From positions 1 to 34,611 of the forward strand of contig JBJEVP010000151.1 of NCBI GenBank assembly GCA_051884475.1: 34,611 nucleotides of DNA, read 5' to 3'. The stretch comes from Candidatus Spyradosoma sp. (lineage in GTDB: Bacteria > Verrucomicrobiota > Verrucomicrobiia > Opitutales > UBA953). This document shows, in pieces, positions 168-34,574 of this stretch. The notes beneath the pieces are model-generated. The model saw only the letters and a program-made list of their open reading frames with translations, made no database searches and was not told the DNA's origin. The stretch's first letter is position 1; every line of letters begins with the position of its first letter. Both the position numbers and the translations under genes were made by a program.

Positions 168-1427
168 ATGACCGCTCATCCCTTCATTTCCGCCGAAAAG
201 GCCAACGAACTCGCCGAACGCTTCGGCACTCCGATCTACGTCTACGACGAAAAGACGCTGCGCGCCAACGCCGCCGCCTGTCTCGCTTTCCCGAACGCCT
301 TCGGGCTGACGGCGCGCTTCGCGATGAAGGCCTGTCCGACCGCCGCCGTGCTGAAGCTCTTTCACTCGCTCGGACTGCATTTCGACGCGTCGAGCGTGCA
401 CGAGGTGCGCCGCGCGATGCTCGCGGGCGTTCCCGCGGAAAAGATTTCGCTTTCGACGCAGGAGCTTCCCGAGGATTTCGCGGAAGTGATCCGCCTCGGA
501 ATCCGATTCAACGCGTGTTCGCTCGACCAGCTCGAACGCTACGGCGCGGCCTTCCCGGGAACGCGCGTCGGCGTGCGCTTCAATCCCGGAATGGGTTCGG
601 GCGGCACGGGCAAGACGAACGTCGGCGGGCCGGATTCCTCGTTCGGCATCTGGCACGAGCACGCGGGAACGGTCGAGGCGATTCTCAAAAAACACGGGCT
701 GACGCTCGAGCGCATTCATACGCACATCGGCAGCGGGAGCGATCCCGCCGTCTGGCAGAAGGCGGCGCTGCAGTCGCTCGGCATGGTGCGGCGCTTCCCG
801 ACGGTCGAGACGCTCGATTTCGGCGGCGGCTACAAGGTCGCGCGCGTGCCGGGCGAAAAGACGACCGACCTGCAGGACTGCGGCGCTCCCGTGCGCGACG
901 CGATCGCGAAGCTCGCCGAAGAGACGGGCCGCCGCCTTCATTTCGAAATCGAGCCGGGAACGTATCTCGTCGCCAACGCGGGCGCGATTCTCGCGCGCGT
1001 GCAGGACGTCGTGGACACCGGCGCCGAGGGACGCAGATTCGTCAAGCTCGACACCGGAATGACGGACCTGCTCCGTCCGAGCCTCTACGGCGCGCAGCAT
1101 CCCATTTTCCTCGCGAAAAAGACGGGGCGCGCCGTTCCCGCGGAGACGGCGGACTACGTCGTCGTCGGGCACTGCTGCGAGTCGGGCGACCTCGTGTCGT
1201 GCGCGCCCGGCGAGCCGGAAACGCTTTCGGCGCGGACGCTCCCGCGCGCGGAAATCGGGGATTTCTGCGTGATCGGCGGCGCGGGCGCTTACTGCGCGGC
1301 GATGTCGGCGAAGAACTACAATTCGTTCCCGGAATCCGCCGAAGTGATGATCGCCGAAAACGGCGAGGCGCGGCTCATCCGCCGCCGCCAGACGCTCGAG
1401 CAGATCGTCCAGAACGAAATCGCCTGA
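168..1427 (+). CDS. lysA: Diaminopimelate decarboxylase
   Basis: [10 protein letters not shown]-terminus, PLP lysine motif FAMKA, HTHIGSG, DFGGG, EPG, CESGD and GAGAY motifs of the fold-type III decarboxylases; 419 aa. Confidence 0.93.
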
Positions 1428-1440
1428 GCGCGCGGCATGA

Positions 1441-1498
1441 CGGCAAAAACCTTGGTGAGAGCCGTCAGTTATCCATTGTCCGCTATCCGTTATCCGCC
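1441..1498. repeat. Intergenic element: CGGCAAAAAC head plus five degenerate heptamers
   Basis: gtcagtt atccatt gtccgct atccgtt atccgcc at 1464-1498; a similar element lies at 32822-32868. Confidence 0.7.
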
Positions 1499-1541
1499 GT
1501 TCCCGTGAGAAGAAACGGGAGGCTTCTCGGGGCTCGCGGCT

Positions 1542-32678: not shown

Positions 32679-32937
32679 GAATTGAAAGTTGAAAATTGAA
32701 AATTTGAACCGGGAAGGAACAGAAGAGAAAGAAGGAGAAGAAAATGAAACACGGATTGAACGGATGAAAACGGATTTCTCCCTCTAAGCTCTAAGCCCTC
32801 AGCTCTCAGCTTTTTTTGCCTCGGCAAAAACTTTGTATTCACTGTCCGTTATCCATTGCCCTGTTCCCATCGCGCTCCTTTTCCCCTAAAAGGATTTTTC
32901 CCTCTAAGCACTCACCTCTCATCTCTCCTCTTTTTTT
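32673..32937. repeat. Intergenic mosaic of short periodic repeat modules
   Basis: ARTTGAA heptamers 32673-32707; GxxExxY-type arm 32749-32775; CTCT(A/C)AG heptamers 32782-32809 and 32902-32929; palindrome tttttgcc-tc-ggcaaaaa 32813-32830; gtccgtt atccatt 32844-32857. Confidence 0.85.
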
Positions 32938-33980
32938 CAACGGAAAAAAGCCTTGGCGTCCGCGCGCGTGACTCCGCGCAGATTCACGTAGCGGGTGAAG
33001 AGGAGCTTCGGCGTGCTGTGTCCCATCTCGAGCTGGAGCTTCGTGATGTCGTGGAAAAGTTTCAGATGATAACTCGCGAAGGTGTGCCGCAGGACGTCCT
33101 GACGCCACGGCTTCCCCGCGTTTCCCCAGCCGCAGGCGCGACGGATGCGCAGCCATTTGCGCGTCCAGTCCGCGGGAACGATTCTGTCCTCGTCCGACGG
33201 CGGAAGCGCGCCGCGGAGCCGCAGAAGGCGCGTCAGCGGCGGGAACACGGAGACGTGCCGCGCGCCGCCCGTCTTGCTGCGGTTCGGCGCGATGCAGACG
33301 ACGCCTTCGCTCAGATCCACGTCCGCGCGTTTCAGACGCGCGACTTCGCTCGGACGTATTCCGCCGTAGAGCATCAGCCCGACGGCGAGCGCCGCCCTCG
33401 GTCCCGCGACGGTCTTCGCCGTGCGGACGAGCGTTTTCGCCTCGCGCGGCGTCAGCGGAAGAATCTCCTTTTCTTCGACTTCCGGAATGCCGATCGCCGA
33501 CACCGGATTGCGCGGCACGACGCCGAGCCTGACGCCGAAGCCGAAGACCGCCGACATCAGCGAGCGGCCCTTCACGGCCTGTCTCGTTTTCGGGAACGCG
33601 GCGGCGAGCGCTTCGAGGCAGTCCTCCGTCGTCACCCGGGACAAGGGCGAGCTTTTCAGTTTCGGCGAACGTTCGAGGAGCTGCCGGCACCGTTGGCGAT
33701 AGTCGCTCCGCGTCCGCGGACGCAGATTGCACCTCGCGGCGAGGTAGCGTTCGAAGATTTCGGGAAACGTCGCCGCCGCCTTCCTCGCGTTCTCCTCCCG
33801 GCTCCGCGCGATTTTTTCGAGCAGGAGCGTCAGGGGCTCCGTTCCCGCGTCGGCTCCCAGCCGCTCCGATATCGCGTTCGCCAGGGCCGCCGCCTCGATG
33901 AGCCCGATTCCCGTTTCCGGCAGGAGTTTCCGGGCCGCGACGTATTCCCTCATCTCGTTTTGAGAAAGTCTGATCTTCAT
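32937..33980 (-). CDS. Tyrosine recombinase / phage-integrase family protein
   Basis: GIRPSE (Arg), SKTG (Lys), DVLRHTFASY (HxxR box with D at the first position), MGHS (His), TRY (Tyr); start placed at ATG 33980 (MKIRLSQ), 347 aa. Confidence 0.9.
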   Translation of the reverse strand: MKIRLSQNEMREYVAARKLLPETGIGLIEAAALANAISERLGADAGTEPLTLLLEKIARSREENARKAAATFPEIFERYLAARCNLRPRTRSDYRQRCRQLLERSPKLKSSPLSRVTTEDCLEALAAAFPKTRQAVKGRSLMSAVFGFGVRLGVVPRNPVSAIGIPEVEEKEILPLTPREAKTLVRTAKTVAGPRAALAVGLMLYGGIRPSEVARLKRADVDLSEGVVCIAPNRSKTGGARHVSVFPPLTRLLRLRGALPPSDEDRIVPADWTRKWLRIRRACGWGNAGKPWRQDVLRHTFASYHLKLFHDITKLQLEMGHSTPKLLFTRYVNLRGVTRADAKAFFR

Positions 33981-34148
33981 GGATTTTTTTCCGTGTGCGT
34001 GTCCTTCTTTTTCTTCCGAAGTCGGGAAAAGGCAAAGTTTTTTTTTCGCGCGGGGCTTCGCGTGCGTCCCGCGGATCCCGCGCGGGAAGATGATTCCGCG
34101 CTTGCGTGTCGGGGGGTGGGCGCATTTAATAGCGGACTTCAATTACCT

Positions 34149-34574
34149 ATGGGCAGTATTCTTATTTACGGTGCTTTGACGGTCCTCGCCTTCGTGTGCG
34201 TGCTGGTCGTCCTTTTCGTTCTTATGCAGAAGCCGAGCGCGAACGCGGGCATGGGCTCGGCGCTCGGCGGCGCGACTTCCGAGAGCGTCTTCGGCGGGGA
34301 AGCCGCCGGCGTGCTTTCCAAGGCGACGGTGATCTTCATTTCCGCGTTCTTCATCCTGTGCGCGGCGCTTTATCTCGCGTTTCTCGGAGCCCGCGACAAG
34401 GGCGAGGGCGAAGGCCTGAAGCTCGAGGAAAAGGCGGAGGCGCAGCCCGTTCCCGCGGCGGAGGAGGCTCCGGCGGCGGCGATCGTTCCCGCCGAGGAAC
34501 CCGCGGCGCAGCCCGCGCCCGAGGCCGTTCCCGCGCAGGAGCCGCAACCGGTCGAAAACGTTCCCGCGCAGTAA
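34149..34574 (+). CDS. secG: Preprotein translocase subunit SecG
   Basis: Two TM helices with LMQKP-x3-AGMGSALGG, ESVFG and VLSKAT loop motifs; Ala/Pro/Glu-rich tail; ATG 34149. Confidence 0.9.
   Translation: MGSILIYGALTVLAFVCVLVVLFVLMQKPSANAGMGSALGGATSESVFGGEAAGVLSKATVIFISAFFILCAALYLAFLGARDKGEGEGLKLEEKAEAQPVPAAEEAPAAAIVPAEEPAAQPAPEAVPAQEPQPVENVPAQ

Follow-up and report, generated by a model that had tools for sequence, protein, structure and literature searches.

The 34,611-nt stretch analysed here (hereafter the window; contig JBJEVP010000151.1 of assembly GCA_051884475.1, Candidatus Spyradosoma sp.) carries lysA, miaA, folB, eda, smc, secG and a long autotransporter gene, and dispersed through it on both strands is a short non-palindromic word, the 9-mer GCGGGAACG, whose 8-mer core is CGGGAACG. 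The 9-mer is present in 109 exact copies (60 on the + strand, 49 on the - strand) between positions 428 and 34567, and the core in 152, of which 136 lie within called genes. At the window's GC content of 63.7%, a zero-order model predicts 0.76 copies of GCGGGAACG, Markov models of order 1, 2 and 3 predict 2.6, 3.7 and 9.3, and the highest count in 20 third-order simulations of the window was 14. A first-pass annotation of the window had reported about 105-110 copies in near-balanced orientations against an expectation of about one, in good agreement with these figures; its GC content of 66% was too high. All nine example sites that it quoted lie at the coordinates given, the six coding ones encode AGT, RER, GN, VPA, AFP and RSR as it had read them, and the three that it placed between genes, at 9016, 14005 and 22968, are outside called genes. 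Its choice of the 9-mer as the unit needs adjustment, however: the word is real, but the first G is a preferred flanking base, and the conserved core is CGGGAACG. The copies and genes concerned are as follows.

428..34567, both strands: dispersed word (G)CGGGAACG(C), 109 9-mers and 152 8-mer cores
428..436, - strand: copy antisense in lysA (168-1427, +), encoding (G)VPA
663..671, + strand: copy sense in lysA, encoding AGT
4398..4406, - strand: copy in miaA (4227-5162, +), encoding RSR
4601..4638, + strand: two miaA copies in different frames, RER at 4601 and (R)GN at 4630
5428..5467, no strand assigned: inverted pair, forward then reverse, within folB; the second copy encodes AFP
9016..9024, - strand: copy outside called genes, after eda
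14005..14013, + strand: copy upstream of the gene for a pyridine nucleotide-disulphide oxidoreductase, not within any called gene
19117..22893, - strand: smc gene with 15 8-mer copies, the basis of the genus tree and site-sharing matrix
22968..22976, - strand: copy in the stretch that separates smc from the EngA/Der GTPase gene
24572..24603, no strand assigned: hairpin-forming inverted pair of putative role, flanked on each side by A-runs, at the EngA/Der gene's 3' end
24707..30802, + strand: autotransporter gene, one of the genome's densest long genes, with 37 copies (6.1/kb)
34448..34567, - strand: SecG's low-complexity C-terminal tail, with four copies that each encode VPA

The word is by no means a peculiarity of this locus. 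In the genome to which the window belongs (G000; 1,698,778 bases in 324 contigs, 82.9% complete), CGGGAACG occurs 5,817 times, or 3.4 copies/kb, in 2,915 forward and 2,902 reverse copies; it is spread across the contigs at a median density of 3.5/kb, with 7 of the 324 below 1/kb. Genes were called with our own hexamer caller (1,288 genes in G000, 84% coding), and since this caller misses some genes, 'intergenic' is used throughout to mean outside called genes. One reading frame that it missed lies in the window itself (12144-13904, +; 586 amino acids, following two glycosyltransferase genes and unmatched in Pfam and NCBIfam). Called G000 genes hold 4,724 copies, compared with 586 ± 16 in ten synonymous-codon shuffles, an excess of about 8-fold that is present in each of the six frames, and in each frame 68-84% of the peptide sites able to encode CGGGAACG do so. 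Outside called genes the density is 4.0/kb. The earlier proposal that the word acts at the level of DNA rather than protein is borne out by these shuffles across all frames. The first-pass annotation had also named outcomes that would speak against it, including disappearance of the enrichment under an amino-acid- and codon-preserving shuffle and restriction to this locus, and none of those examined was observed.

The flanks of the word are soft (in G000, G at position -1 in 70% of copies, C at -2 in 59% and C at +1 in 51%), and no conservation was found in that genome beyond ±2 bases. Copies do not behave as expected of REP/MITE-type repeats: 4,724 of 5,817 are genic, flanks are unconserved, and sites in smc originate by point mutation. 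Word density climbs with local GC content, from 1.6/kb at 45-50% to 4.2/kb at 65-70%. Among G000 genes of at least 1.5 kb the highest density belongs to comEC (G000:C311 2357-4090, +; 12 copies, 6.9/kb), which is fast-evolving.

The word has also left its mark on the proteome. AGT (4.7x) and VPA (4.9x) are the top tripeptides of the G000 proteome and RER is enriched 3.3x, with reversed-tripeptide controls flat (TGA 1.04, APV 1.09). AGT and VPA likewise head the list in G016, a genus member sampled at 52% GC; in a sister-genus sample of 60,337 residues VPA stands at 0.92, but AGT at 2.15 and RER at 2.06. The same tripeptide-plus-reversed-control test has been applied to uptake words, with enrichment of about 2x (PMC2817400). 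In 373 ortholog pairs between G000 (63% GC) and G016, 735 of 1,355 ungapped word sites are identical, compared with a baseline of 13.7% for all 8-mers. Density is 1.7/kb in proteins at least 90% identical versus 3.7-4.4/kb in those at 30-80% identity. At sites where the peptide bars a perfect copy, enrichment extends to many variants at positions 3-8 and reaches 5.2x, although some of these are depleted, for example those creating GTAC; variants at positions 1-2 are mostly unenriched (0.8-1.3 in G000, 0.8-2.0 in G016). Such a profile suggests that recognition is graded but strict at the 5' CG, and decay remnants may contribute to the enrichment of near-matches. As a separate observation, the palindromes CTAG, GGCC, GTAC, CCGG, GTCGAC and CTCGAG are strongly under-represented in G000 under maximal-order Markov models.

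Mobile-type genes are poor in the word: matches to the GxxExxY and four-helix-bundle families hold one copy in 1,779 bp where about six would be expected, and the island-like contig C141 has three over its first seven called genes. The window contains one of each type, both of lower GC content and without the word, namely a GxxExxY gene (3795-4199, +), absent from the syntenic site in G014, and a four-helix-bundle gene (17328-17702, -). A tyrosine recombinase gene (Phage_integrase, Phage_int_M; 32937-34142, -) adjoins secG with no phage genes nearby, and the word copies inside it suggest long residence. The sole RNA family match in the window is a tRNA-Leu(CAA) (16429-16513, -).

Outside genes, close word pairs in G000 are strongly biased in orientation, with 105 in reverse-then-forward order versus 24 in the opposite order. 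Reverse-then-forward pairs typically run A-run, stem, loop, stem, T-run, and such A/T-tailed pairs are found in 16 of 76 tail-to-tail gaps in G000 and 23 of 62 in G016, versus 3 of 94 and 3 of 72 head-to-head gaps; no intergenic pair of this terminator-like type lies within the window itself. From this layout, the hairpins are predicted to terminate transcription. Orientation-biased inverted pairs in terminators have been described for the DNA uptake sequences (DUS) of Neisseriaceae and the uptake signal sequences (USS) of Pasteurellaceae (PMC1852404, PMC3630211).

The word shows no replichore polarity. In 714 kb of G016, 1,199 of 2,274 word sites (52.7%) lie on the G-rich strand, a small excess that follows gene direction, and intergenic sites divide 191:180, which upholds, for this sample, the earlier statement that the word lacks the strand polarisation of Chi and KOPS. 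Gaps between copies are Poisson-like (coefficients of variation 1.04 and 0.96), and neither 10-11 bp nor 100-300 bp periodicity was found at periods up to 300 bp; a weak hint at 9.5-11 bp failed to hold by orientation or distance class. A 19-kb stretch of G045 without + strand 10-mers proved just moderately depleted once both strands were counted. The likely replication origin of G016 (G016:C1, L005-L012), marked by the cumulative minimum of GC skew (64,028) and by five DnaA-box-like sites (60,516-60,679), lies within an 18-kb region (C1, ~60,000-78,000) of 37-47% GC, compared with 52% in the rest of the sample, which has fewer word copies despite housekeeping-type genes.

The word is enriched in all 19 genomes of the genus, whose gut habitat is taken from record titles, and 15 of these hold more than 5,000 copies of the 8-mer (5,159-7,777 in 14 of the 18 other than G000), at 2.6-4.5 copies/kb in the word-rich genomes. 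The remaining four are G001, G002 and G013, with 1,347-1,385 copies, and G014, with 552. Six sister-genus genomes have 79-224 copies of the 8-mer, all 82 family genomes from outside the genus have 0-64 copies of the 10-mer form, and all 298 phylum genomes from outside the genus have at most 326 copies of the 9-mer (0.09/kb), compared with 1.7-2.4/kb in three genus genomes of the same draw. The word is confined to a single genus, which, judging from record titles and SMC identity, is likely Ca. Spyradosoma (Opitutales). A scan of GTDB contigs (43 of 64 parts) for the flanked terminator pair returned 109 loci, 100 of them in records titled Ca. Spyradosoma, Opitutales or Verrucomicrobia or in oddly labelled records with multiple hits. 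Four of the latter, titled Sphaerochaetaceae, Enterobacteriaceae, Bacteroidaceae and Spyradenecus (L075, L076, L087, L096), hold 1,614-2,984 copies of the 10-mer, and their SMC proteins are 68-88% identical to that of the window (genus range 57-88%); the titles are probably wrong. Of the nine single-hit records, the four that were tested stand at background level (6-45 copies of the 10-mer). Among viral contigs, 65 loci carry the inverted pair, none above 0.83/kb, a scan that is uninformative because the collection may lack phages of this genus. No dialect words were seen in small samples (23-80 kb) of four sister-genus genomes. Titles and the opening parts of abstracts gave no published account of CGGGAACG or of an uptake word in Verrucomicrobiota, in searches that were read by top-ranked matches where broad and that took in few subscription journals.

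A tree of SMC proteins (quick IQ-TREE, 25 rows, SH-aLRT support only, built without G005, without the partial outgroups G029 and G030 and with no same-family outgroup) places G001/G002/G013 (0.65/kb) as sister to the word-rich G008 (2.7/kb) with support of 100, and their proteins are about 90% identical to those of G008. G014 (0.29/kb) forms a separate lineage among word-rich ones (sister-group support 86, enclosing clade 99). Only 6 of 51 word sites of G008 are kept in G013, with 19 carrying one mismatch and 11 carrying two, whereas 48 of 85 G008 sites are shared with the more distant G016. Copies that survive in the decayed genomes are mostly ancestral (17/27, 9/13, 6/12 and 14/23 shared with G000), and aligned smc genes show word sites gained and lost by point change. 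The proteins still bear the imprint, as VPA remains enriched 3.2x in G013 and 3.0x in G014, and the word is used in 39 of 137 AGT tripeptides in G013 and 5 of 39 in G014, compared with 52 of 60 in G008. Terminator pairs remain in 4 of 13 tail-to-tail gaps of G013. No replacement or dialect word was seen in coding DNA of the decayed genomes (282 kb of G013 and 113 kb of G014). Since the word decays by point mutation in nested lineages, an active force maintains it, and this force has been switched off at least twice within the genus. Other repeats were noted along the way: AT-rich short intergenic repeats of the AGATTAAAG / AGAGCTTAAG type recur in the G013 and G002 samples, AGAGCTTA is over-represented in G000 too, and CCACCAACCC has 92 copies in 105 kb of the G014 sample (L033-L042), where it is probably a local repeat array because it is absent from the top words of called genes shorter than 6 kb.

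Among the known systems closest to the word is the DUS, which is read by the minor pilin ComP (PMC3630211). Both are non-palindromic, GC-rich, lineage-restricted words present in thousands of copies in equal orientations, and both form orientation-biased inverted pairs in terminators, here predicted ones (PMC3630211). The word, however, is unrelated to the DUS in sequence and phylum, its 8-bp core is shorter, no dialects were seen within the genus samples, and there is neither a ComP match nor a pilin that is not acidic or neutral among those examined. It occupies 2.7% of G000 and up to ~3.6% of G003, compared with ~2.5% for the densest DUS dialect reported, that of Kingella oralis (PMC3630211). 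With the USS the word shares tripeptide enrichment with flat reversed controls, origin by point mutation and decay in some lineages, as well as a few critical core bases with the others graded (PMC3458573, PMC2817400, PMC1626085, PMC12616744). The extended word even contains GCGG, the four bases described as critical in the Haemophilus influenzae USS, which is probably coincidence. Unlike the USS, which has 1,471 copies in the 1.83 Mb of H. influenzae (PMC1852404), the word is about 4-fold denser, enriches peptides about 5x rather than 2x, has no AT-rich flanking segments and decays in lineages that retain intact competence genes. The cyanobacterial HIP1 is likewise a hyper-abundant octamer kept by selection in coding DNA, with a proposed link to transformation (PMC5861425, PMC13756078). 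Unlike HIP1, the word is not a palindrome, is genus-wide rather than phylum-wide and has no conserved methyltransferase that we could find. Chi and KOPS are also non-palindromic, over-represented octamers, and known Chi sites are replichore-polarised; the word has no such polarity, is far denser and remodels the proteome. As the first-pass annotation stated, the word matches none of the DUS, USS or HIP1, whose own words GCCGTCTGAA, AAGTGCGGT and GCGATCGC occur 2, 6 and, counted over both strands, 422 times in G000. The word works like a DUS or USS, yet it is not a member of either class, differing in sequence, phylum and apparent receptor.

Much of the machinery for natural transformation can be found in these genomes. 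ComEC was detected in 41 of 41 relatives and DprA in 40 of 41, including genera without the word, and ComM and ComF in all 19 genus genomes, although the ComF matches fall below the curated cut-off and the ComM match of G013 is partial. All 19 also carry 7-11 pilin-type genes, PilB and PilT are present, and a secretin of 970-1,050 amino acids occurs in five of five genomes. Of the competence genes that the first-pass annotation had named for a search, ComEC, DprA and those for type IV pili are there, but no ComEA-sized protein was found in five of five genomes and no ComP match among the G000 pilins scanned.

Several candidates for a protein that reads the word were considered and set aside. 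A solo pilin of 137 amino acids occurs in 19 of 19 genus genomes, in 0 of 41 genomes of three sister genera and as two weak matches in a fourth, a distribution for which no control pilin was searched family-wide; it is 92% identical between G008 and the decayed G013, and its net charge is zero or below. A 1,340-amino-acid protein (L016:5205-9227, -), which has no NCBIfam match and to our reading resembles a pilus-tip protein, is missing at one syntenic site, yet G013 has it intact at another place and it is common across the family, with 1-3 matches per genome in the genus and up to 19 in sister genera (partly pieces of one gene). Four pilins of one operon are all acidic and are conserved in decayed genomes; a search of the Atlas gave generic N_methyl clusters only, and a metagenome scan one locus. 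Their four-gene operon (L301, G000:C19) runs into a gene of the RuvX/YqgF resolvase family, and operon and resolvase gene are found together in G008, G013 and G014. A synteny search for a reader gene lost from the decayed lineages gave no convincing candidate in 0.49 Mb of the G001/G002/G013 clade, about a quarter of which was covered, and 0.14 Mb of G014.

What force, then, could write such a word into a genome? Judging from the genomic signature, we lean somewhat towards molecular drive, arising because transforming DNA is taken up, or processed early on, with a bias for the sequence. Cells of the genus would be competent for natural transformation, a putative sequence-preferring protein would read the word during uptake or the early processing of incoming DNA, the bias perhaps acting at uptake itself, and the word would accumulate because DNA carrying it would recombine back into the chromosome more often. 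The DUS/USS-type hallmarks and the complete set of type IVa pilus, ComEC, DprA, ComM and ComF genes lend weight to the uptake signal first proposed for the window, although the same genes are also intact where the word decays. Since competence genes are intact in the decayed lineages, this reading requires loss of specificity alone, and those lineages may have lost or relaxed the specificity factor while retaining the machinery. It is more tentative, and to our minds somewhat doubtful, that sequence-specific uptake arose independently in this genus, with a word denser than any DUS or USS reported and a receptor unlike both ComP and ComEA, and that it can be switched off without loss of the machinery, as happened twice.

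A number of observations weigh against biased uptake. Genera without the word have ComEC and DprA just as often, the decayed genomes have kept every tested competence and pilus gene intact, and 12 comparable gene pairs reveal no more change in G013 than in G008. In the known case of a decayed USS, that of H. ducreyi, the competence genes are broken (PMC1626085), whereas those tested in the decayed lineages here are intact. No helix-hairpin-helix protein of ComEA size was found in five of five genomes, above-cut-off matches being confined to frames of 791-829 amino acids, and the G000 pilins scanned gave no match to the ComP family. The stripe by which ComP and FimT bind DNA is electropositive (PMC12616744), and the five pilins examined have net charges of 0 to -13. 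AT-rich flanks of the USS kind are absent, the flanks being flat over ±30 bases, and per-contig strand counts in G000 are overdispersed even after correction for gene strand (chi-square 314, 123 contigs). Perfect 8-mers in G000 (5,817) are outnumbered by those with a single mismatch (7,178); the corresponding figures are 109 and 102 for the 9-mer in the window and 1,026 and 1,084 for the 8-mer in the G016 sample. Most of the hallmarks are expected under any strong genome-wide force acting for the word.

Such a force might, for instance, lie inside the cell, with a dispensable chromosome protein, perhaps a nucleoid organiser or a self-marking defence factor, binding the word, copies being selected and the protein having been lost twice. 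We consider this unlikely, albeit the most serious competitor: the graded near-match profile would fit any DNA-binding protein, competence genes do not track the word, and neither ComEA nor a basic pilin was found, yet the gaps are Poisson-like without short periodicity, density tracks what the proteins tolerate and not a fixed spacing, the two losses left no visible genome damage, and no candidate gene emerged from the 0.49 and 0.14 Mb of decayed-lineage DNA. Rather more doubtful is a non-polar, Chi-like recombination site by which homologous DNA, however it entered the cell, would be protected or activated. This would explain drive-like accumulation without a surface reader as well as the intact pili of the decayed lineages, and the four-pilin operon does run into a RuvX/YqgF gene, but Chi is polarised and the word, with 52.7% of sites on the G-rich strand and intergenic sites at 191:180, is not.

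We also find it improbable that a repair bias directed by methylation or another modification creates and keeps the word, as has been proposed for HIP1, which is recognised by two methylases and similarly abundant (PMC13756078). This branch of the first-pass proposal is weakened, as the word-rich genomes tested have no methyltransferase family in common: of five such genomes, PF01555 and PF07669 are each found in four, PF00145 and PF02384 in three and PF02086 in two, in proteins of varying length, and an MmeI-type enzyme, searched for in 41 genomes, is present in 10 of the 19 of the genus, including the decayed G001 and G014. The word does contain GAAC/GTTC, a phosphorothioation site, but dndC was found over cut-off in none of five word-rich genomes, the one match being a 45-position fragment at a contig end; moreover, partial matches are favoured in a graded way, and the word is not palindromic. 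As for the reading that codon bias, peptide motifs, a small mobile repeat or faulty assembly produced the word as a by-product, the climb of density with GC content and the lodging of part of the copies in terminator-like hairpins might be cited in its favour, and we nevertheless give it almost no credence. It is refuted by the shuffles (8x in every frame, with 4.0/kb outside called genes), by the range of the word (19 separately assembled genomes, among them that of G016, sampled at 52% GC, and G000 at 63%), by the ortholog comparison, by the lack of conserved flanks beyond ±2 bases and by smc, in which sites come and go by point change.

Uptake words have been described for Neisseriaceae and Pasteurellaceae, and whether they reflect drive or selection for self-DNA is debated. 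As an uptake word, that of Ca. Spyradosoma would add a case from another phylum, with a higher density and a stronger distortion of the proteome. Because the two losses are independent and lie within word-rich clades, the reader gene should be findable by comparative genomics, and the nested losses give a clock for the decay of such words. One word-rich record, L094, is a RefSeq entry not titled as a metagenome-assembled genome, so that bench tests may be possible. The word is also usable as a binning marker, given that four records labelled as another family or genus combine it with SMC identity at the genus level. And if the reader proves to be intracellular, the word would represent a new kind of chromosome-wide mark.

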